Part shown: one piece after another, positions 1,424 through 15,956 of the stretch
Position numbering within the stretch: the first letter of the stretch is position 1
Layout of the letters: each line of letters opens with the position of its first letter
Assembly (NCBI GenBank): GCA_900321105.1
Contig: OOHL01000001.1
Span: 121,617 to 185,616 of the forward strand
Direction: 5' to 3'
From: an uncultured Pseudomonadota bacterium
GTDB taxonomy: Bacteria > Pseudomonadota > Alphaproteobacteria > Rs-D84
DNA length: 64,000 nt
Position numbers and translations under genes: made by a program
The notes under the pieces: model-generated
Told to the model about the DNA's origin: nothing
Databases searched by the model: none
What the model saw: only the letters and a program-made list of their open reading frames with translations

Positions 1424-3412
1424 ATGCAAGTTTATGTGAATATCGAAAATAAAAGTTGGAAAAAATATAAAATTGATTTCGAAAAAATCGCAAATGCGGC
1501 GGTTTTGCCCGTGCACAAGAATTCAGAAGTTTCGATAACTTTGATCGATGATAAACAAATACATAAACTTAATAAACAATATCGTGGTATAGATAAGCCG
1601 ACAAATGTTTTATCTTTTGAACTGGGTGATGATGTTTTGTTGGGGGATATTTTTATATCGTTGGATACAGTTAAACGCGAAGCAAAGGCCGCGCATATTT
1701 CGGTCGAAGAACATACTGCGCATATGATTGTTCACGGCATGTTGCATTTGCAAGGATATGATCATATAAAAGACAAAGATGCAAAAATAATGGAATCTAA
1801 AGAAATAAAAATATTAGAGAAACTAGGATATAAAAACCCATATAAAGATGAAGAATGTGACATATCTTGTTGTCGTCATAATATCTTTTATAAATTACAG
1901 AATATAAAAATTCGCGAAAACAGTTTTGGGTGGTATTTTACCGCTGGCTTGTTGGGTATTATAACTTCATTTGGTTTTGCACCATTTAATTTATGGATGC
2001 TTTCGGTGTTTGGCATTGGATTTATGTATTATTTAGTAACACGGCAAAACAATCATATAAGTTTTTTGAAATCTTATTTGTTGGCATTTCCGTTTGGCGC
2101 TTTTTACGGAATCGCAATGTTTTGGTGGGTACTGAATTCGATATATGTGATGCCTGAACTAGCGGCTCAATTTGCAATATGGACAATTCCTGCATTGATA
2201 GGCATTGGTTTGTTGTGTGGTTTTATCTTGCCATTGCCGTTTGCGATTATTCGATATGTTCACAGAAATTCTGCACAAAGGGTAATTTTGTTTGCTGTGC
2301 TCTGGGTGCTTGTTTTATGGGGACGTGAATGGTTTTTAACAGGTTTTCCATGGAACCCAATTTCCAATATCACAATGAATATTCCAATGGTGGTTAATTC
2401 TATGTCATTGTGGGGTGCAATCGGATTAAGTTTTGTTATAATCGGTGTCATCGCATCATTTGTTGAATTATGCAGAAAAAACAGAATATCAAATTGGTTT
2501 GTTTTTGTTATGTACATTGTTTTGTTTTTAATTGGTTGTGCATTTGGTTATCACAATATGAGATTATCTGATAATATAATAAATAAATCCCCACTAATAA
2601 GAATTGTGCAGCCGGCACAATCTGCCGTATACAAGATTCCGTCTAGTAGGGAAGAAGCGCAAAATATTGCAAAGCAAAAGATACGCGATTTATTTGTTTG
2701 GGCTACAAATGATAAAGATGAAAATCCATCCATAATAGTGTTCCCAGAAACAGCATATCCATATACTGTTGTTGATAATGTATTTCCGTTGTCACGTATT
2801 TTAAACACAGATGTTATAATGGGTGCCAATTCATATAGTGATGGTAATACATATAATTCAATGGTTGTTGCAGATAAAAATGGAATAATTCAAAAATTAT
2901 ACAGTAAATCACATTTAGTGCCATTTGGTGAATATCGTCCGTTTGGTGATATTATCCCAACACCAGGCGAATTAACTGCTGGAAATGGCAAGGAATTGAT
3001 AAGTATCGGCGAATTTTCTTTTGCACCTGCAATTTGTTATGAAATTATATTTTCAGATTCTTTGGTGCCATATGGTACACATCCTGATGCGATTATCAAT
3101 ATAACAAACGACACATGGTTTGGGATGACGCCTGGTGTGTTCCAGCATCTTGATATGGTTCGCAGATATGCAATAGAATCTGGTTTGCCAATTATTCGTG
3201 CAAATTATTCGGGTATAAGCGCGTTTGTTGGGGCTGATGGGAATGTTATATCTATGATGCCAGTTGGCGAAACAGGAAGTTTAGACGGTTTTGTCTGGGG
3301 GGCACATAATACACCATACAGAATAATAGGACGAGATATGTGGATGGCGTTTATTTTGATGTTTTCAATATTTGCTTCAATATCCATATCCTTGTTTCAG
3401 AAGAAAGATTAG
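1424..3412 (+). CDS. ybeY/lnt: YbeY endoribonuclease domain (N-terminal ~150 aa) fused in one ORF to apolipoprotein N-acyltransferase Lnt
   Basis: HGMLHLQGYDH metal-binding motif of YbeY; then multi-TM region and carbon-nitrogen hydrolase domain (VFPETAYPY, ICYEIIF) typical of Lnt; a single uninterrupted 662-aa ORF. Confidence 0.7.
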   Translation: MQVYVNIENKSWKKYKIDFEKIANAAVLPVHKNSEVSITLIDDKQIHKLNKQYRGIDKPTNVLSFELGDDVLLGDIFISLDTVKREAKAAHISVEEHTAHMIVHGMLHLQGYDHIKDKDAKIMESKEIKILEKLGYKNPYKDEECDISCCRHNIFYKLQNIKIRENSFGWYFTAGLLGIITSFGFAPFNLWMLSVFGIGFMYYLVTRQNNHISFLKSYLLAFPFGAFYGIAMFWWVLNSIYVMPELAAQFAIWTIPALIGIGLLCGFILPLPFAIIRYVHRNSAQRVILFAVLWVLVLWGREWFLTGFPWNPISNITMNIPMVVNSMSLWGAIGLSFVIIGVIASFVELCRKNRISNWFVFVMYIVLFLIGCAFGYHNMRLSDNIINKSPLIRIVQPAQSAVYKIPSSREEAQNIAKQKIRDLFVWATNDKDENPSIIVFPETAYPYTVVDNVFPLSRILNTDVIMGANSYSDGNTYNSMVVADKNGIIQKLYSKSHLVPFGEYRPFGDIIPTPGELTAGNGKELISIGEFSFAPAICYEIIFSDSLVPYGTHPDAIINITNDTWFGMTPGVFQHLDMVRRYAIESGLPIIRANYSGISAFVGADGNVISMMPVGETGSLDGFVWGAHNTPYRIIGRDMWMAFILMFSIFASISISLFQKKD

Positions 3413-3563
3413 ATTCTGGATTGCGTGATTCATCAATACTTTTAATAATTGATGCAATTGATACATCGCGTGATAGGGCTATTTGTTGTAATACTTCAAA
3501 AAATTCTTGTTCAATAGATATACTGGTTTGATGTCCAGACAAAGATACAGATATTTTATGCAT
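3351..3563 (-). CDS. ribbon-helix-helix DNA-binding protein (COG4321-like)
   Basis: KISVSLSGHQTSISIEQEFFEVLQQIA resembles the conserved alphaproteobacterial RHH family; last gene of a tightly packed minus-strand cluster. Confidence 0.45.
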   Translation of the reverse strand: MHKISVSLSGHQTSISIEQEFFEVLQQIALSRDVSIASIIKSIDESRNPESNLSSETRIWILKQILKTSK

Positions 3564-6823: not shown

Positions 6824-8398
6824 ATGCGTAACGGATTATCAAAAGATTTAATAGCACGCGTATTGGGTGGTGCACCAAAATATACACTTGATGAACTGGA
6901 AACTAAATTCCCAGCAAGAAACTTGCCAGAAGGCGCAATGGTGACACGTTTTGCACCAAGTCCTACGGGTTATATGCATTTGGGTAATTTGTACAGTTTT
7001 TTAATTGATTACAAATTGGCACAACAATCTAATGGTATTTTCTTGTTGCGTATAGAAGATACAGATACAAAACGTGAAATTAAAGAAGCTGTTAATGTTG
7101 TTATAAAAGCATTATCGGATTTTGGCATTAAATATAATAATGATGAACAATATGGTCCATATTATCAATCACAACGTAAGGATATTTATCATTCTGTTGC
7201 TGCTTATTTACTTGAAAAAGGTTTGGCGTATCCTTGCTTTTTAACCCAAGAAGAAATGGATGATATTCGTGAAAAACAGGGTCTTGCGGGTATAGCAACT
7301 GGTATTTATGGTGAATTTGCACGTGATCGTGATATGAGTGAAGAAGACATAATCAAACATCTTGATAATGGCGAAACACCAACGATTCGTTTGTATTCAA
7401 TGGGTGATCCAAATAAAAGAATTTATTTTAAAGATTTTGTGCGCGGTTCTATATCTTTGCCAGAAAATAATGAAGATATTGTTTTAATAAAATCTACGGA
7501 CAGATTGCCAACATATCATTTTGCGCATTTGTGCGATGATCATTTTATGCGTATAACACATGTTGTGCGTGGTGAAGAATATTTTGGAACAGTTGCTTTG
7601 CATATTCAAATGTTTCGTATGATGGGTTGGCAATTACCAAATTATATCCATACGGCAACATTGGATAAAATCGATGAAGAAACTGGTAAACAAAGAAAAA
7701 TGTCTAAACGTAAAGATCCAGAAAATAATATTGCGTTTTTCTTACAAGAAGGTTGGCCAACAGAATCAGTTGTAGAATATTTGGGTAATATTTTGGCGCC
7801 TGGTTATGAAGAAGCAAAATTAAAAGGTCAGGTAAGATGTTTCTGGGATTATGAATTAAAACCAAAGAAAATACCTGGGTCTGGTTCTTTGTTTGATATG
7901 AAGAAACTGGAATGGTGGGCCAAGGAATATATTGCAACATTGCCTGTTTCTGAATTGGTAAAAAATGTTGTTGATTGGGCAAATGAATATGGAAACGAAG
8001 ACAATAAAAAACAAGTTGCAGATGTGCCATATTTAACATCTGTGTTGTCTATTGAACGTGACAATCCAAAACGTATTCGCAAAGATTTTATTACATGGCA
8101 ACAAACATTAAGCGAGGTTTCTTATTTCTGGGATTTCTTGTTCAATGCTAACAAAGAATATGAATATAACAAAGATGTTTTGCGCGAATTTTTGGCGACA
8201 TATAACGCAAATGACGATAAAGATTCTTGGTGGAATAAGATTGTCGCAGTCGCTGAAAAATGCGGTGTTAAACCAGGCGAAGTTGCAATGAATTTGCGTG
8301 TTGCGATGACAGGTCGTACAAACACACCTGATTTGTATTCGGTGATGCAAGTACTTGGCGGTGAACGTGTCAAAGAGAGAGTAAATATGATTTTATAA
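6824..8398 (+). CDS. gltX: glutamate--tRNA ligase (probably non-discriminating, since gatCAB is present)
   Basis: FAPSPTGYMHLGN HIGH motif; KMSKR KMSKS motif. Confidence 0.9.
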   Translation: MRNGLSKDLIARVLGGAPKYTLDELETKFPARNLPEGAMVTRFAPSPTGYMHLGNLYSFLIDYKLAQQSNGIFLLRIEDTDTKREIKEAVNVVIKALSDFGIKYNNDEQYGPYYQSQRKDIYHSVAAYLLEKGLAYPCFLTQEEMDDIREKQGLAGIATGIYGEFARDRDMSEEDIIKHLDNGETPTIRLYSMGDPNKRIYFKDFVRGSISLPENNEDIVLIKSTDRLPTYHFAHLCDDHFMRITHVVRGEEYFGTVALHIQMFRMMGWQLPNYIHTATLDKIDEETGKQRKMSKRKDPENNIAFFLQEGWPTESVVEYLGNILAPGYEEAKLKGQVRCFWDYELKPKKIPGSGSLFDMKKLEWWAKEYIATLPVSELVKNVVDWANEYGNEDNKKQVADVPYLTSVLSIERDNPKRIRKDFITWQQTLSEVSYFWDFLFNANKEYEYNKDVLREFLATYNANDDKDSWWNKIVAVAEKCGVKPGEVAMNLRVAMTGRTNTPDLYSVMQVLGGERVKERVNMIL

Positions 8399-10625: not shown

Positions 10626-11228
10626 ATGAAAGCAAAGAAAAAGAATTGGTTTTCGAAATTGTCTGATATATTCTTTCGTCCTAAATACTTTTTTTCACGC
10701 ATTGTCGCCGATGGTAAAATGGAAGACGCGATGTTAAAGGCTTTCCTTTGGGGGTTTGTTGGTGGAATATTGATTTTGATTATCAATTTATTTCGTGACG
10801 GACTGGCTGCATTTACAGTGTTTTCATTTTTCAAATCAATAATTATCTATCCGGTGTTGGCGGTTATGTTGCTGTTTATTACGGCGGGTTTGATGATGTT
10901 AGTGTCTGAAATCACAGGTGGTGAACGCGATTGGGAAATTGCAGTCAAAGGTATCGCATCAATTTTCTTTGTATATCCATTGGCGTTGTTGTTGAATGTG
11001 TTGGCATTTGATTGTCAATCGATTTGGGCGGTCAGTTTGCTGACAGATATATATATGGCATTTTTACTTTATAACATTGCGGTATATTGCATGCATGGCA
11101 AACGCATAAGTGTTTTATTTGTTGTAATGGTATGCTTCGTTTTGTTGGCGTGTTTGTATGTGTCAGATTACAAAACAGTTTGGTTTATGGTTAAAAACAT
11201 AGATGCAAATTCAATTTGTGTATTCTAG
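10626..11228 (+). CDS. Yip1-like multi-TM membrane protein
   Basis: 200 aa, 5 predicted TM segments. Confidence 0.4.
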   Translation: MKAKKKNWFSKLSDIFFRPKYFFSRIVADGKMEDAMLKAFLWGFVGGILILIINLFRDGLAAFTVFSFFKSIIIYPVLAVMLLFITAGLMMLVSEITGGERDWEIAVKGIASIFFVYPLALLLNVLAFDCQSIWAVSLLTDIYMAFLLYNIAVYCMHGKRISVLFVVMVCFVLLACLYVSDYKTVWFMVKNIDANSICVF

Positions 11229-11339
11229 GGAATATGAATACATACATATAGTTTTTATTATCTGTATTATATAAAATTAAGCACAGAATTTTTTTGTTTA
11301 CAATACAGCACAAGATGTTTTACACTGATTTTGAACCTG

Positions 11340-11530
11340 ATAATTGGGTTCGGGGCTGTCGAAAGCCTTGGTACATTCGGTGCGAAAGCATCGTTAAATG
11401 ATGTTGTGCGGTGTTTTTGCACCGATTCATATCCCCTGCGATTATGGTTGGGGGGCCGCGTACGTATATATAAATGTCGCGGAATCACCAATGTACTGAT
11501 TTTCGAACCCCCCGACCGCCCAATTGGTAG
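11340..11530. ncRNA. GC-rich structured noncoding element, candidate small RNA of unknown class
   Basis: about 50% GC in a roughly 33% GC genome; nested long-range pairings GGGTTCG/CGAACCC and GGTACATT(C)GGTG/CACCAATGTAC enclose three local hairpins; no plausible ORF. Confidence 0.25.
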
Positions 11531-11552
11531 CGTTTTTTATATTGGGGATAAA

Positions 11553-12500
11553 TTGTTTAAAATATTAAAGTATTTTTATTTAATTTATTTTGTATTTGTT
11601 ATCGCAAATACAGCGTATGCTGCGTCTTGCGCAACAGATTACGGTGTTGCGGTTCATCCTGTTGATCTGGATTTTAATATTAACAATCCTGAATATCCTG
11701 ATGAAATTACATTGACGGACAAAGGATTAAATACAGGTACATTTGTATTATCGGATGATGGAAATTGTTATTCGGGATATGAACCATACACGCGCGGTGG
11801 CGGTGATGTTTATCCATTAATAGAAGATTCAGATTTATGTGCGGATGGTTATTATCGTTCTGCTGGGAATTGTGTTGCGTTTACGGATGGTGGTTGTCCA
11901 ACAGGTCGTTATAATTCGGCGGTAAATATTGCGACATTTGTTGCATCAGAAGATGGTAATTGTTATTCCGGATTTGATGTTTATACGCGCAGCGGTGACG
12001 ATATATATCCATTGGTAGATTCGTCAAATTCGATATTGTGCCCGGCAGGTCAATATATGGCGAACGGAACATGTACGGCATATCCAATTGGCACATGTCC
12101 AGAAAATATGAAAAACACAACAACGAATTCTGCGACATGGTCGGCGATGACAAACGGTGTATGCCCATCTAATTATACAGAATATACAATATCAACCATT
12201 GAATACGCGTGTGACACGTATGTCAGTCACATAACATCCGAAACGCCGGCATGTTTGCTGATGTGTACAAATGGGCAAACTTTCTCGGAAGTAAATTCAT
12301 GTTCCGCGTTATGTGCCGATCATCATCAATTGATGACAGATACAGGTTTGGAATTCCCGATGTACACAACAAAACAAATCACGCCATCGTTGAATATACA
12401 GGTTGGGAATAATGTATGTTATGTGAATTTGGTCAGCGGTGCATCAGATGATGCGATAAATATAAAGTATAACAACACAACCTATCATACGGTGAAATAA
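11553..12500 (+). CDS. secreted Cys-rich protein with internal tandem repeats (TTG start)
   Basis: in-frame TTG preceded by GGGGA; signal peptide LFKILKYFYLIYFVFVIANTAYA; repeated DGNCYSGxxxYTRxGxDxYPL units; the annotated upstream extension covers the structured RNA-like region and is rejected. Confidence 0.5.
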   Translation: MFKILKYFYLIYFVFVIANTAYAASCATDYGVAVHPVDLDFNINNPEYPDEITLTDKGLNTGTFVLSDDGNCYSGYEPYTRGGGDVYPLIEDSDLCADGYYRSAGNCVAFTDGGCPTGRYNSAVNIATFVASEDGNCYSGFDVYTRSGDDIYPLVDSSNSILCPAGQYMANGTCTAYPIGTCPENMKNTTTNSATWSAMTNGVCPSNYTEYTISTIEYACDTYVSHITSETPACLLMCTNGQTFSEVNSCSALCADHHQLMTDTGLEFPMYTTKQITPSLNIQVGNNVCYVNLVSGASDDAINIKYNNTTYHTVK

Positions 12501-12557
12501 AGGATGAAAAAGGAAGAAGTAATTTTATAAAAAATTGCCCTGGTGGAAGAACCTTAT

Positions 12558-12735
12558 AAGTTCCGCCCCCGTGGGGGGGAGAATTAAAAGTTCTCCTCCT
12601 TTGGAGGAGTCCCCGCAGGGGGAGGTGGTAAGAGAGTGCAAATACTTGGAAAGACCACCCCGTCACTTCGTGCCACCCCTCCATAGAGGGGAACTAAGAA
12701 ATTCCGCCCCCGTGGGGGGGGAGAATATAAAAACT
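12558..12735. repeat. composite intergenic hairpin repeat, copy 1 (units A, B, C)
   Basis: ctcctcc-ttt-ggaggag, ccccc-gtg-ggggg and cccctc-cata-gagggg hairpins; unit C is repeated nearly verbatim at 13869..13947. Confidence 0.7.
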
Positions 12736-12742
12736 TTTATGC

Positions 12743-12783
12743 GGTGATGTTTTTTCCTCTTCCGTAAAAAAAATAACATCACC
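12743..12783 (+). terminator. long-loop hairpin (ggtgatgtt ... aacatcacc), possible terminator or processing site
   Basis: 9-bp perfect inverted repeat with a 23-nt loop. Confidence 0.35.
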
Positions 12784-12817
12784 GCGCCCGAGATAAAAAA
12801 CAAAGGAAGGAACAACA

Positions 12818-13226
12818 ATGAAACGCATAATGATATTTTTGATAATGATAATGGGAATATATTCAAACAAATACCGCGGTTGCGGTGTTAAATAAATTGG
12901 TTGGGGGCAGTGTTGATAATTCAACAACTGGACATCGATGGCAGGTTAACATGACGGATACCACCGCCGTCAAAGGCAAATCGTTATGTACAGGTATGCC
13001 TGGGGATTTTGCGGTTGTGAATACCGGTGTCGCCGATACAACCGATACCGGTTATCATTGCTATTGCAAAATGATGGCACCGGCAACATCGTATTGGGTA
13101 AATGCCAGTGGTTCATCGCCGTATGCGACTGAATCTGAATGTGAAAGCGGGTGTAACAGTGCATGTGCGAATTATATGGCAACAAATACAACATTTCGCA
13201 GCGCCGTATACGAAGCAGTGTGGTAA
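12818..13226 (+). pseudogene. frameshifted paralog of the DGR target gene
   Basis: a signal-peptide ORF MKRIMIFLIMIMG stops after 26 codons; the +1 frame (open from 12852) continues into a 113-aa ORF whose C-terminus (HCYCKMMAP..SYW...C.S.C..C.NY) parallels the active target (RYCWCKMTHP..SLW...C.S.C..C.NY). Confidence 0.5.
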
Positions 13227-13228
13227 GG

Positions 13229-13270
13229 GTTCTCCTCCTTCGGAGGAGTCCCCACAGGGTGAGAATAAAA
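13229..13270. repeat. composite hairpin repeat, short copy (unit B plus the tail of unit C)
   Basis: ctcctcc-ttc-ggaggag hairpin followed by gagaataaaa, as in the other copies. Confidence 0.6.
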
Positions 13271-13285
13271 CAAAAGGAAGAAAAA

Positions 13286-13756
13286 ATGAAAAAGATATGG
13301 ATATGTGTGTTAATGATAATGGTGTTTGTAATACCAGCGTTGGCTGTGTCGGTCTGTGCCAAAGACAGTGTTGTTACGGTTGTATTGGATCCATCAATCG
13401 GTGGTAATTCATATACATATAATAACAGCACAGGCGTGTGGAAAACGGTGTTTTCGTACGGCAATGTGTCGGGGGTCAGCACATGTTCAACCGTCGCCCC
13501 AACGGGTGGCAGGGGTTCAACCAATACCAGTGCAGGCACCCCATTGGATGCCGTTGCAGGCGATACATCGGGACGATATTGTTGGTGTAAAATGACACAC
13601 CCAATGTCTTCGCTTTGGGCGTTCCTCTACGACTACGGGTTTGCTTCGAATTGCGCTTCGAACTGTGCGACCATCTGCGGTAACTACGTCCGGAACGGCG
13701 GCGATTTGCGCGGCGGGCTGTTCGGTTCGGTCGCCGCTGCGAATGCAGCGTATTGA
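13286..13756 (+). CDS. DGR target (variable) protein: small secreted Cys-rich protein with the VR at its C-terminus
   Basis: AAGGAAG RBS; signal peptide MKKIWICVLMIMVFVIPALA; the last ~45 codons align with the TR except at TR adenines. Confidence 0.8.
   Translation: MKKIWICVLMIMVFVIPALAVSVCAKDSVVTVVLDPSIGGNSYTYNNSTGVWKTVFSYGNVSGVSTCSTVAPTGGRGSTNTSAGTPLDAVAGDTSGRYCWCKMTHPMSSLWAFLYDYGFASNCASNCATICGNYVRNGGDLRGGLFGSVAAANAAY
13605..13734 (+). repeat. DGR variable repeat (VR)
   Basis: 130 bp; 116/130 identical to the TR at 14065..14194; 13 of 14 mismatches lie at TR adenines, 1 is C to G. Confidence 0.85.
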
Positions 13757-13802
13757 TGTAACGCAAGGGCCGTGGCACGAACACGCGTGACACGATAATG
13801 CG

Positions 13803-13829
13803 CCCGACACCACGGCAAGTGGTGTCGGG
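13803..13829 (+). promoter_or_regulatory. GC-rich 10-bp stem-loop about 45 nt downstream of the VR (candidate DGR homing-enhancing hairpin or terminator)
   Basis: cccgacacca-cggcaag-tggtgtcggg perfect inverted repeat. Confidence 0.5.
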
Positions 13830-13837
13830 AATTAAAA

Positions 13838-13947
13838 TTTCTCCTCCTTTGGAGGAGTCCTTGGAAATACACCCCGTCACTTCGTGCCACCCCTTCATAG
13901 AGGGGAACTAAGAAGTTCCGCACCCGCGGGGGGGAGAACATAAAAAA
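13838..13947. repeat. composite intergenic hairpin repeat, copy 2 (units B and C)
   Basis: near-identical to 12591..12735. Confidence 0.7.
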
Positions 13948-14064
13948 CAGGAATAAAAACGAATCTTTGACAACAGGGTGTGATAAGTTGTATTGTTATG
14001 TTCAAGGGTATATCGCCGTATCGGTTGTGCGGTAGCTGATTCGTGGGGCGTGGCTGGGTTGTCG

Positions 14065-14194
14065 TGTCTTCGCTTTGGGCGTTCAACAACGACAACGGGA
14101 ATGCTTCGAATTGCGCTTCGAACTGTACGAACAACTGCGGTAACAACGTCCAGAACAACGCCGATTTGCGCGGCGGGCTGTTCGGTTCGGTCGC
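14065..14194 (+). repeat. DGR template repeat (TR), noncoding
   Basis: adenine-rich (about 28 A, many AAC/AAT triplets in the VR reading frame); matches the VR except at adenines. Confidence 0.85.
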
Positions 14195-14596
14195 TCCTTT
14201 GCAAGGTTATAACTTTGAATGCAAAGACAAAGTTTGGCTAACCTGTGGGACAAAGTGGTAAAACACTTTTCAGATGCGGATGTATCTGTTTATATATGCC
14301 TTGTCACATCAAAGGCGGGGCGGTATATCCTGTCCGAATACAAAGGACCAAACACAATACACAGGGGACATCTGGACTGGTAGGGTTTTTAACCTGAACG
14401 CCCTGGATGTCCAATACAAGTAGATTCGGGAACGAAGTGTATCGGAATCGTCACGGTATGCGCGCAGACACATAGTGTCGAGCGAATACGAGAATACATA
14501 ATTAGAAAAATCATAAAAACGGAGCTGTTTGATATGAGTTTTTATAGATTTTTATTATTGTGTATCGAGGAAAAAAATAAAACGAAGAGATAATAA

Positions 14597-14923
14597 ATGA
14601 CTTTAGATGAAATTAAAAAATTAGATGCAACATCTTGTCCAAGATTTTCGGCGTTCGCTAAAAATCAATTACCAATGCCGGGAAATAAAAAACGCCTTGA
14701 TGATATTTTAAACCGCGAAATTACTGTTATTGATTATCGAATTCGTAAATCTACGAAACGTGATGGCACCGAATGTTTACAAATGCAATTTTTACTGGGT
14801 GATGAAGTCTGTGTTGTTTTTACCGGCAGCAGCGTTTTAATCAACCAAATCAAAGAATCCAAAGATAATATTCCTTTTACTGCAACTTTGGTCAAAATGG
14901 ACAGATATTATTCTTTTTCTTGA
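14597..14923 (+). CDS. DGR accessory protein (not obviously Avd-like), 108 aa, ends 4 nt before the RT start
   Basis: position between TR and RT; beta-rich composition rather than a basic helical bundle. Confidence 0.45.
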   Translation: MTLDEIKKLDATSCPRFSAFAKNQLPMPGNKKRLDDILNREITVIDYRIRKSTKRDGTECLQMQFLLGDEVCVVFTGSSVLINQIKESKDNIPFTATLVKMDRYYSFS

Positions 14924-14927
14924 AACG

Positions 14928-15956
14928 ATGAAACGTTATAAAAATCTTTGGGATAAATTTATTTCTATGGAAAATCTGGAATTAGCAGCAAAAAAAGCAG
15001 TTAAATCCAAAAAAAATAAACCAGAAACAAAACTGTTTTTAGAACATAAAACAGAATTCTTGCTGAAATTACAACAAATGTTAATTGATGGGAATTTTAA
15101 TACATCCCAATATAAAGTTCGCAGAATTTTTGAACCAAAAGAAAGACTGATTTATATTTTACCCCTTTATCCAGATCATATTGTGCATCATGCGTTGATA
15201 AATATTCTGGGACCAATTTGGCAAAGTGGTTTTATTCGTGATTCTTATGCCTGTATCCCAGGCAGGGGATTGCATGCCGCATCAACCGCGATAATGAAAT
15301 TTATTCGTCGAAATAAATATGTTCTGCAATGCGATATTCGCAAATTTTATCCGTCCATAAATCATGATGTAATGTTTAATATAATAAAAAAGAAAATTGG
15401 CGATAAACGATTGTTGAATTTGTTACATAATATTATATGGTCATGTGGTGACGAAACAAATCTGCCAATTGGTAATTTAACATCACAATGGATGGGAAAT
15501 GTTTATATGAACGAATTGGATCATTTTGTAAAAGAACAATTACGATGCACGGACTATATTCGTTATTGTGATGATTTTTGTTTGTTCGCAAATGATAAAA
15601 AAACTTTGCATGAATATGAAAATAAATTGCATCAATTTGTGCGTGATAAATTAAAATTGGTATTTTCTAAATCTGTAATTCGAGTTGTTGCAAATGGGGT
15701 TGCGTTTATTGGTTATCGGCATTTCAAAAAATTTATATTGTTGCGAAGATATGGTGCTAAAAAAATGCGAAAACGTATTCTGCATATTGCAAAATACAGG
15801 GATAAATCTGATTTGGCAATTGGACAATTAGCGGCATATCATGGTTGGGCTAAATGGTGTTGCAGTCATAATTTTCTGACAGACGTTTGCAATCGTGCAA
15901 AAGAAATATCTGAAAAAACAGGTCAATTTATTTTTTGCAATTTGTTCAAGAATTAA
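14928..15956 (+). CDS. DGR-type reverse transcriptase
   Basis: RT motifs QCDIRKFYPSI, LPIGNLTSQ (the DGR-specific SQ motif) and YIRYCDDF (YxDD); 342 aa, typical DGR RT size. Confidence 0.85.
   Translation: MKRYKNLWDKFISMENLELAAKKAVKSKKNKPETKLFLEHKTEFLLKLQQMLIDGNFNTSQYKVRRIFEPKERLIYILPLYPDHIVHHALINILGPIWQSGFIRDSYACIPGRGLHAASTAIMKFIRRNKYVLQCDIRKFYPSINHDVMFNIIKKKIGDKRLLNLLHNIIWSCGDETNLPIGNLTSQWMGNVYMNELDHFVKEQLRCTDYIRYCDDFCLFANDKKTLHEYENKLHQFVRDKLKLVFSKSVIRVVANGVAFIGYRHFKKFILLRRYGAKKMRKRILHIAKYRDKSDLAIGQLAAYHGWAKWCCSHNFLTDVCNRAKEISEKTGQFIFCNLFKN

Follow-up and report, generated by a model that had tools for sequence, protein, structure and literature searches.

Palindromic GC-rich repeats in a diversity-generating retroelement cassette resemble BoxC/triplex motifs and are associated with DUF559 genes

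Introduction

The BoxC repeats of Escherichia coli were later named PIT (potential intrastrand triplex) elements and then the G/C-rich triplex motif (TM) TM_ECO (Bergler 1992; Hoyne/Maher 2000; Holder et al. 2015, PMC4666352). TM_ECO is present in 23 copies in MG1655 and in 3610 copies in 262 genomes, and five of its inverted pairs combine two motif types, type A and type B. Such repeats are able to adopt hairpin or cruciform folds. The isolated motif strand forms a triplex in vitro; in vivo formation was not demonstrated. Loci with the motif have increased local variability, including partial deletions within palindromic pairs, and have undergone more rearrangement than control loci. Holder et al. 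detected neither mobility genes nor a connection of TM with phages or plasmids, and they refer to earlier work in which E. coli PIT elements had no promoter or terminator activity (PMC4666352). Here, we describe hairpin repeats located around the target genes of a diversity-generating retroelement (DGR) of an AT-rich gut alphaproteobacterium. The DNA that was analysed, a 64-kb stretch of contig OOHL01000001.1 with 36% G+C, is referred to as the window.

The repeats are probably copies of a selfish GC-rich palindromic repeat inserted in the intergenic spacers of a horizontally mobile DGR cassette, and not components of the retroelement; we assign this explanation a probability of about 0.72. 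Their most likely source is a family of units of about 500–700 nucleotides (nt), in which the same inverted arms bracket a gene encoding a DUF559 (Vsr-like PD-(D/E)XK) protein.

Results

Repeats of the window are arms of an inverted doublet

The original prediction described three GC-rich units, A, B, and C, and all of them are present in the window, with none expected in dinucleotide-preserving shuffles. Unit B (TTCTCCTCCTTYGGAGGAGTCC) occurs exactly on the plus strand at 12591, 13230, and 13839 (0 expected in shuffles), the 45-nt core of unit C at 12656 and 13870, and unit A (CCGCCCCCGTGGGGGGGAGAA, at most three mismatches) at 12563, 12704, and 13918. They are nearly the sole intergenic stretches of the window with at least 80% G+C. 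Units B and C had been regarded as separate; instead, they form the left (B) and right (C) arms of a single palindrome (12591–12694), an inverted doublet of about 105 nt.

The basic arm is about 40–50 nt long and consists of TT, a pyrimidine block (CYCCTCC), a loop, a purine block (GGAGGRG), a T, a second hairpin, a second purine block (GRGGTGG), and TT. This second purine block mirrors the first one, except that T replaces A. Two arms are inverted about a short AT-rich spacer, and the right half, when read on the opposite strand, shows the layout of the left half. Therefore, the element is an inverted doublet of one arm of about 45 nt.

The left arm of element 1 (12591–12629, plus strand) was detected both by the covariance model R1 (71.3 bits, E 4e-22) and by a scan for the three blocks. 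It contains CTCCTCC (12593–12599), the loop TTT, GGAGGAG (12603–12609), a T, hairpin 2 with the sequence CCCC-GCA-GGGG (12611–12621), and the mirror block GAGGTGG (12622–12628). The AT-rich variable spacer (12630–12654, plus strand) occupies the place that the DUF559 gene has in longer units. The right arm (12655–12694, minus strand; R1 44.7 bits) reads GTTCCCCTC-TAT-GGAGGGG-T-GGCAC-GAA-GTGAC-GGGGTGG on the minus strand. The second copy comprises only a left arm, in which the third block is degenerate (13230–13263, plus strand; R1 48.2 bits). This solo arm is located 4 nt past the stop codon of gene 2 and just 5' of the ribosome-binding site of the gene that contains the DGR variable repeat (VR). 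Element 3 (13839–13908, plus strand) is a doublet lacking 33 nt, which comprise hairpin 2, the third block, and most of the spacer, and its arms score 25.6 bits (plus strand) and 29.5 bits (minus strand) with R1. Unit A is located at 12561–12583 (TTCCGCCCCCGTGGGGGGGAGAA), 12702–12725, and 13916–13938, always on the plus strand. It aligns with hairpin 1 of the arms of a related cassette (L166, see below) and with the hairpin 3' of the right inverted repeat of a DUF559 unit (L170, alignment A7), and it is a lone first-hairpin fragment of a sister subtype (CTCCCCC/GGGGGAG).

Five arms were identified in the window by R1, at 12586–12635 (plus), 12648–12698 (minus), 13225–13274 (plus), 13834–13871 (plus), and 13862–13912 (minus), and the rest of the 64 kb outside 12586–13912 yielded no further arm at E<=1. 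Thus, the earlier statement that the units occur only around the DGR target paralogues holds within the window. All copies lie on the coding strand, 4–90 nt past stop codons. The repeat regions fold much better than shuffled sequences as RNA (z = -6.0 and -5.5), and folding as DNA also exceeds that of shuffles (z = -3.4). No Rfam family reached its gathering score in the window or in 11 repeat-rich viral loci, and a search of 11200–14650 in E-value mode returned nothing relevant; Rfam overlaps were at chance level only (CRISPR-DR37, 22 bits, E 1.2).

The doublets are parts of two paralogous composites with the order hairpin, GAATTAAAA, doublet, TAAGAA, unit A (alignment A4). The composites W1 (12553–12735) and W3 (13795–13947) are direct repeats of about 150 nt flanking genes 2 and 3, and are 94% identical in a 65-nt core. 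Element 3 is preceded by an 11-bp hairpin CCCGACACCAC-GGCAA-GTGGTGTCGGG (13804–13830, plus strand), as element 1 is preceded by unit A. This hairpin is not conserved in the related cassettes L165 and L166.

A scan with the exact 22-mer of unit B against representative genomes and metagenomes identified four loci: a Rickettsiales metagenome-assembled genome (MAG; L001), a sheep-gut alphaproteobacterial MAG (L002), and two metagenome contigs (L003 and L004). Single elements in L001, L002, and L004 have the order left arm, spacer, right arm as in the window, and consist of unit B, a small hairpin, GGAGGTGG, a variable AT-rich stretch, CCACCCC, a small hairpin, and the CCCCTCC...GGAGGGGAAC hairpin of unit C. 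The spacers of these three elements vary in length and sequence (alignment A1). The arms are consistently distinct in the window, L001, L002, L004, and L010, with the left arm of the GGAGGAG type and the right arm of the GGAGGGG type. The locus L003 carries the same parts of the element in a circularly permuted order. A self-cleaving ribozyme or another multi-helix RNA was considered because of this permutation and was rejected, since the two halves are inverted copies of one module and arms occur in both orientations and in open reading frames (ORFs).

When 14 arms are aligned (A2), pairing in the two hairpins amounts to 93.5%, and all five pairs of hairpin 2 show compensatory changes, which was reached in 0 of 500 shuffles. 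Hairpin 2 covaries likewise in 99 arms from viral contigs. The block triplet CCCCTCC/GGAGGGG/GGGGTGG was counted 166 times, CTCCTCC/GGAGGAG/GAGGTGG 29 times, CTCCCCC/GGGGGAG/GAGGGGG 19 times, and CCTCTCC/GGAGAGG/GGTGAGG 13 times. The mirror third block follows the sequence of hairpin 1 across these subtypes, and is also present in repeats that were reached independently through homology of DUF559 proteins. The three-way match with a mirror block marks potential intrastrand purine-motif triplexes.

Comparison with described repeat classes

Judged by their block design, the window repeats are a variant of the BoxC/PIT/triplex-motif kind that is distinct from TM_ECO itself. One strand contains a pyrimidine block, a complementary purine block, and a mirror purine block (class II, C-G-G), represented by CTCCTCC/GGAGGAG/GAGGTGG at 12593–12628, and the doublets are intergenic inverted pairs of two distinct types, as are TM pairs. 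Both families are G+C-rich, interspersed, about 40 nt long, and without assigned function; they form inverted pairs of two slightly different types from three blocks, have variable loops and conserved stems, and show partial deletions in palindromic pairs. The strict TM_ECO pattern CCCTCNCCC N3-6 GGGNGAGGG N3 GGGNGAGGG matched E. coli loci but not the arms of the window. The blocks are 7 nt long in the window and 9 nt in TM_ECO, and the second loop has 3 nt in TM_ECO, whereas it has 12–20 nt and a covarying hairpin in the family described here. The window arms, with 7-nt blocks and a hairpin-bearing second loop of 12 nt, are therefore a related variant and not TM_ECO itself. The hosts also differ, an AT-rich gut alphaproteobacterium here and E. 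coli for TM_ECO. Furthermore, Holder et al. reported intergenic positions only, no phage or plasmid association, and no mobility genes. In contrast, relatives of the window repeats are abundant in viral contigs and in ORFs, and a DUF559 gene is linked to the family.

The original prediction called the units REP-like (repetitive extragenic palindromic). This is correct for the general class, short palindromic interspersed repeats with inverted doublets such as REPINs (REP doublets forming hairpins) and BIMEs (bacterial interspersed mosaic elements), but their kind is that of BoxC/PIT/triplex motifs. Like REP, BIME, and REPIN sequences, the window repeats are short imperfect palindromes, occur as singlets and as inverted doublets with a short spacer, and are intergenic, often just past stop codons. 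In both, the doublet is a plausible replicative unit, and the inverted doublet of the window is able to form a long hairpin. The window repeats lack a REP head of the GTAG type, and no REP-associated tyrosine transposase (RAYT) was noticed, although RAYTs were not searched for. The candidate partner gene encodes a PD-(D/E)XK nuclease, instead of the Y1 transposase (RAYT) of REPINs, and the family is found across phyla and in phages, in contrast to the lineage-bound REPINs. REP/REPIN families have tens to hundreds of copies per genome and flank a cognate RAYT gene; the window has five arms in 64 kb, and the exact 22-mer is present once in each of two other genomes.

Rickettsia palindromic elements (RPEs) and miniature inverted-repeat transposable elements (MITEs; Correia, ERIC) are likewise palindromic insertions of about 100–150 nt with presence/absence polymorphism between close relatives. 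RPEs are found in frame inside ORFs, as are arms in viral contigs. As in MITEs, the terminal inverted repeats are shared with a gene-carrying element, because the arm subfamily is found at DUF559 genes in L170, L173, L175, and L178. Unlike RPEs and MITEs, the family is without target-site duplication, its terminal repeats are two-hairpin mirror-repeat modules, and no parent with a DDE transposase is known. Neither the copy-2 insertion nor any of five DUF559 units is bordered by direct repeats.

Several other identities were considered. The proposal that the units are terminators does not fit the sense strand, which has A-rich or mixed tails and no U-tract; in a pattern scan, hairpin 1 was terminator-like on the minus strand only. 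A canonical intrinsic terminator was therefore dropped for the sense strand, with hairpins called on the minus strand only. A palindrome after each gene, together with a weak match to sRNA-Xcc1 (see below), suggested integron attC sites. The ends, judged by eye, are GTTC...GAAC and not RYYYAAC...GTTRRRY, and no integron context was evident, although an integrase was not searched for. Tn3-type inverted repeats were ruled out by the polarity of the ends. A G-quadruplex is possible for the GGAGGGG subtype and not for the left arm of the window, hence it is not a general property.

Insertion polymorphism in related DGR cassettes

The repeats are set within a genuine DGR. The VR (13605–13737, plus strand) lies inside the target gene 13286–13756, and the template repeat (TR; 14065–14197, plus strand) is 89% identical to it, with 13 substitutions at TR adenines. 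A gene encoding a 108-residue protein without a Pfam match (14597–14923, plus strand) is followed by the reverse transcriptase (RT) gene (14928–15956, plus strand; RVT_1, E 2e-13). Related cassettes were fetched through homologues of the RT: L165 (RT 86% identical), L166 (80%), and L168 (75%), all of which share the pair of the 108-residue protein and the RT. The gene for the 108-residue protein is at the site expected for an Avd-type gene and its product has no Pfam match; therefore, this DGR lineage may use an uncharacterised accessory factor. The small Cys-rich target paralogues, the TR, the 108-residue protein gene, and the RT gene have different housekeeping-gene neighbours in each of the four alphaproteobacterial assemblies (the window, L165, L166, and L168), which argues that the cassette itself is horizontally mobile.

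The L165 cassette contains gene 1, gene 2, the VR gene, the TR, the accessory gene, and the RT gene as in the window, and 9 of its 14 TR/VR differences are at TR adenines. Neither L165 nor L168 contains repeat arms at E<=1 with R1. The spacer between genes 1 and 2 has about 12 nt in L165, compared to 318 nt in the window, where it also contains a 15-bp inverted repeat GCGGTGATGTTTTTT / AAATAACATCACCGC (12741–12785, plus strand) missing from L165. After gene 2, the stop codon TAA is followed by ATAAAAAAAGGAAGAAAAAATG in L165 and by GGGTTCTCCTCCTTCGGAGGAGTCCCCACAGGGTGAG and AATAAAACAAAAGGAAGAAAAAATG in the window. The solo arm is a clean insertion of about 37 nt relative to L165 (TAA/ATAAAAAAAGGAAG versus TAA/GGGTTCTCC...GGGTGAG/AATAAAACAAAAGGAAG). 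After the VR gene, L165 has ordinary hairpins in place of the composite. The cassette L166 contains six arms of the CTCCCCC subtype, and no arm was found by R1 in its other 19 kb outside the cassette. Two of the arms are in tandem at the post-stop site of gene 2, the same site as that of the solo arm of the window. The comparison of these sequences indicates that the repeats are insertion-polymorphic at orthologous sites and that the DGR architecture does not depend on them.

A sister assembly of the window's organism (L043), reached through its identical RT protein, differs from the window solely by two small deletions. L043 holds a full-length copy of element 3 (left arm 68.2 bits with R1), from which the 33-nt internal deletion of the window is absent. 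Gene 2 (12819–13226) is a paralogue of the DGR target without a VR. In the window, it has lost 26 nt after 12864, which shifts its reading frame, whereas it is intact (144 residues) in L043 at 7832–8266, in an otherwise identical assembly.

An imperfect hairpin CGTGGCACG / CGTGACACG (13771–13794, plus strand), which does not belong to the repeat family, is located in a stretch of about 37 nt that the window, L165, and L166 all conserve downstream of the VR gene. In contrast, the repeat arms are not conserved downstream of the VR in related DGRs, being absent from L165 and L168. Guo and colleagues reportedly showed in 2011 that the Bordetella phage DGR needs GC-rich inverted repeats downstream of the VR. 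By analogy, the hairpin 13771–13794 is a candidate for the DGR target-recognition hairpin.

Occurrence of the repeats outside DGRs

No homologues of the RT or of the target proteins were found in the loci L001–L042. The right-arm pattern matched at least 120 viral contigs with 36–75% G+C, and the covariance model identified 99 arms in 910 kb of viral contigs. Based on a crude gene call, 46 of the 99 arms are inside ORFs, 21 on the same strand and 25 on the opposite strand, and the intergenic arms have no strand bias (16 versus 18). One Mu-like viral contig contains two arms in frame within a portal-MuF ORF of 990 residues, which contradicts a purely RNA-level role. A full-length copy is also carried by a Bacteroidales-like prophage or integrative element (L033). 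The refuting observation named in the original prediction, units scattered irrespective of context, was thus made across genomes, including viral contigs and L001–L004, and the units are not DGR-specific. Nor can they be regarded as cis-elements of the retroelement, as the earlier text had suggested, since L165 and L168 lack arms and the family occurs without a DGR in L001–L004 and in many viral contigs.

Some features of the phage copies were observed in addition. The GC-rich Mu-like contigs L014 (797–3766, minus strand) and L008 (11561–13036, plus strand) encode the portal and MuF domains in one long ORF, with arms in frame at domain boundaries, where translation would give KLSSFSRRSPRLRRGRWFP. 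Many viral arms are directly preceded, and sometimes followed, by three to six tandem copies of a contig-specific 7-nt unit, such as AGCTGTT, GTTAGAC, GTTAGGG, CAGAAGT, TCCAAAG, or CCAAAAT (for example in L078 at 1840–1875, L128 at 3410–3460, L049, L052, L063, and L066). A search for the literal repeat sequences in full-text literature returned nothing relevant except for one 30-mer (GATGCCCCGGCGAACCGGGGCGGGGTGGTT) of the Pseudomonas PB1-like phage Ab27, which was reported to match P. aeruginosa CRISPR spacers (PMC4482731). The 30-mer has the form of hairpin 2 and the third block of a repeat arm; therefore, the repeats may be targeted by CRISPR spacers or confound spacer matching.

Association of the repeats with DUF559 genes

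A gene encoding a DUF559 protein of 115 residues (PF04480, Vsr-like) is located between arms in L166, and homologues in the viral contigs L066 and L090 are bracketed by inverted arms. In L066, the stop codon of the DUF559 gene lies within the loop of the first hairpin of the right arm. A search with the protein returned at least 1200 relatives, and the best 120 of these are 72–86% identical and mostly encoded on very short contigs, presumably because flanking repeats are expected to break assemblies. For three gut DUF559 proteins, all 20 fetched loci have a plus-strand arm upstream and a minus-strand arm downstream of the gene. The inverted repeats of L178 are 55 nt long, 98% complementary, and 403 nt apart, forming a unit of 513 nt. 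The right arm of the window belongs to the same subfamily as the arms adjoining DUF559 genes in L170, L173, and L175 (alignment A6).

Outside this clade, ten loci were fetched after a tblastn search of plasmid records. Inverted repeats with the triplex motif flank the DUF559 gene in five of them, from Deinococcus, S. meliloti, Sphingobium, Pseudanabaena, and Sphingomonas; the flanking repeats are partial in Azospirillum and weak in Picosynechococcus. The repeats of the Sinorhizobium meliloti locus are 114 nt long and contain a strict TM. In Deinococcus psychrotolerans (NZ_CP034185.1, L191), a 495-nt unit with 56-nt repeats (298328–298822) lies between paaD and paaZ of the phenylacetate operon and is a clean example of a DUF559 unit inserted inside an operon. 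The E. coli gene ycjD also encodes a DUF559 protein. In E. coli KE47, a strict TM_ECO overlaps the ycjD stop codon, and a second BoxC is located about 170 nt downstream in the opposite orientation. The first of the two BoxC repeats of ycjD is partly deleted in E. coli K-12. The repeat family is physically coupled to DUF559 genes, and no paper linking BoxC/PIT/TM repeats to DUF559 was found in the literature searched, which is no proof of novelty.

The DUF559 protein matches PDB 3HRL (E 3e-16) and is a predicted PD-(D/E)XK nuclease. One member of the Vsr/DUF559/DUF2726 clade is a homing endonuclease of a group I intron (PMC3424549). DUF559 proteins are also enriched, with an odds ratio of 14, among predicted targets of programmed inversion (PMC9881135), as would be produced by flanking inverted repeats. 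Homing endonuclease genes (Vsr-like/EDxHD, I-Bth0305I) resemble the DUF559 units in being small PD-(D/E)XK genes between or within host genes. Unlike the DUF559 units, they are not normally bracketed by inverted repeats of 36–114 nt, and the DUF559 units have no intron or intein context and a nuclease activity that is predicted. A DUF559 unit in L183 (2015–3292) is located between 439-nt inverted repeats, 82% complementary, which reach into two convergent large genes. The DUF559 segments of L183 and L184 are in both orientations relative to the flanks, and the segment may be invertible, swapping the 3' ends of the genes.

Discussion

Origin of the repeats

Based on the inverted arms flanking DUF559 genes in all gut and viral loci examined, in at least five of the ten plasmid loci, and at ycjD, the window copies look like gene-less derivatives of such units. 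They may be gene-less MITE-like derivatives, or vacant target palindromes into which DUF559 genes home. The DUF559 protein would supply the nuclease step that mobilises the repeats, presumably by recognising structured DNA such as a hairpin, cruciform, or triplex. Since there is no target-site duplication, a cut-and-repair or homing-like route is likelier than DDE-type transposition. The concentration of the arms in the cassette may result from available intergenic space, local duplication, or co-transfer with the mobile cassette. The effect of the repeats on the DGR would be incidental, through local instability or recombination, and not functional. The 33-nt deletion in element 3 of the window resembles the partial deletions reported for palindromic TM pairs.

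Several observations weigh against this selfish origin. The copy number appears low, since the exact left-arm 22-mer occurs once per genome in both representative genomes that hold it. No DUF559 gene was found in the 64-kb window by tblastn, and no transposase or RAYT was noticed there, although these were not searched for. Three of the ten DUF559 loci from the plasmid collection (Synechocystis, Photobacterium, and Neisseria) have no clear flanking repeats. No target-site duplication was seen, so classical DDE-type transposition is unlikely. The cassette makes up about 30% of the intergenic DNA of the window, which renders the concentration of arms only modestly significant, and local duplication could explain several of the window copies. 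Finally, the six independent full-length copies from bacterial or Bacteroidales-like sequences all have the orientation of the gene upstream. Such uniform co-orientation would not be expected of a purely selfish repeat and suggests a possible constraint on one strand, at the RNA level.

The co-orientation also agrees with the idea that the repeats are functional RNA structures in the 3'-untranslated regions of the target genes, recruited by the cassette as stabilisers that block 3' exonucleases, as processing sites, or as insulators separating the target-gene transcripts from the TR promoter. The coding-strand position of all window copies shortly after stop codons fits such a role, as do the orientation of the full-length copies in L001, L002, L004, and L033, the strong predicted folds, the compensatory changes in hairpin 2, and the location of element 3 between the VR gene and a promoter-like site (13967–13996) 5' of the TR. 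We nevertheless consider it rather unlikely, because L165 and L168 manage without arms, the hairpins are not followed by a U-tract on the sense strand, no Rfam family matches, and the 99 viral arms are unbiased in orientation and nearly half of them are in ORFs in either orientation. The compensatory changes of a DNA palindrome cannot tell RNA from DNA function, and the absence of promoter and terminator activity from PIT elements, as related by Holder et al. (PMC4666352), also speaks against the RNA role.

The repeats might instead have been kept as recombination substrates that duplicate, delete, or shuffle the target paralogues, because the resulting variation is useful. The composites W1 and W3 are well suited for this as nearly identical direct repeats flanking genes 2 and 3, the number of paralogues differs among cassettes, E. 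coli triplex-motif loci are more rearranged than controls (PMC4666352), and the DUF559 segment that L183 and L184 carry between long inverted repeats is present in either orientation. However, no recombinant between the composites was seen, and the window and L043 are separated by two small deletions only. L165 has the same three paralogues without repeats, and instability is expected of any repeat and does not require selection. Maintenance for this purpose is thus distinctly unlikely, and recombinational shuffling is possible as a side effect of the repeats.

A role as cis-acting parts of the DGR, with a hairpin or cruciform marking the VR for mutagenic homing or the paralogues as potential targets, is highly improbable and already largely refuted by the empty-site cassette L165, in which most TR/VR differences are at TR adenines in spite of the absence of arms; L168 lacks them as well. 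The confinement of arms to the cassette in the window and L166 would agree with a DGR function, as would the arm 4 nt after the VR-less paralogue gene 2 and the inverted repeats that the Bordetella phage DGR is said to need 3' of its VR. However, it is the other hairpin, at 13771–13794, that is conserved after the VR in three cassettes. Gene 1 lacks a VR and is nevertheless followed by a composite, and the repeat family is abundant where no DGR exists.

We therefore prefer insertion of a selfish palindromic repeat, and its link to DUF559 genes may extend beyond this locus. We tentatively propose, as a possibility that is yet to outweigh its alternatives, that BoxC/PIT/triplex repeats are the termini and gene-less derivatives of unrecognised small mobile elements with a DUF559 gene of about 115 residues as their sole gene. 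The substrate of the nuclease would be the structured ends (hairpin, cruciform, or triplex), which it would recognise or cleave; alternatively, it would home into the middle of the palindromic doublet. Such elements would span Alphaproteobacteria, Enterobacteria, Cyanobacteria, Deinococcus, and phages, and the DGR cassette would be one colonised locus. The DUF559 link provides a concrete candidate for the spread of BoxC/PIT/triplex repeats, which have been without a known origin for three decades (since 1992), and suggests what the "endonuclease domain-containing" proteins, a very large family of unassigned role, may do. It also follows from the phage copies that triplex-type motifs are common in phage genomes and able to sit inside ORFs.

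For the DGR, the repeats can be left aside as passengers when cis-requirements are defined, and for target recognition, the hairpin 13771–13794 is the more plausible candidate. The presence of the repeats identifies the cassette as a site prone to small indels, exemplified by the 33-nt deletion, and perhaps to gain and loss of paralogues.

Other conserved sequences of the cassette

About 220 nt 3' of the TR are strongly conserved between the window (14200–14420), L165 (3850–4075), and L166 (9265–9510), and include ...ACAAAGTTTGGCTAACCTGTGGGACAAAGTGGTAA...GGGGACATCTGGACTGGTA... This stretch probably forms the structured spacer of the DGR RNA, and L166 has repeat arms inserted right behind it. 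A non-coding stretch of about 210 nt 5' of gene 1 is conserved between the window (11300–11530) and L165 (1296–1512). It contains a long-range complementarity GGTTGGGGGG...CCCCCCGACC and the direct repeats CTGATTTTGAACC / CTGATTTTCGAACC, and it has a weak Rfam match to sRNA-Xcc1 (27.8 bits compared to a gathering score of 53, E 0.067). The stretch could represent a structured leader, or else the left end of the mobile DGR cassette.

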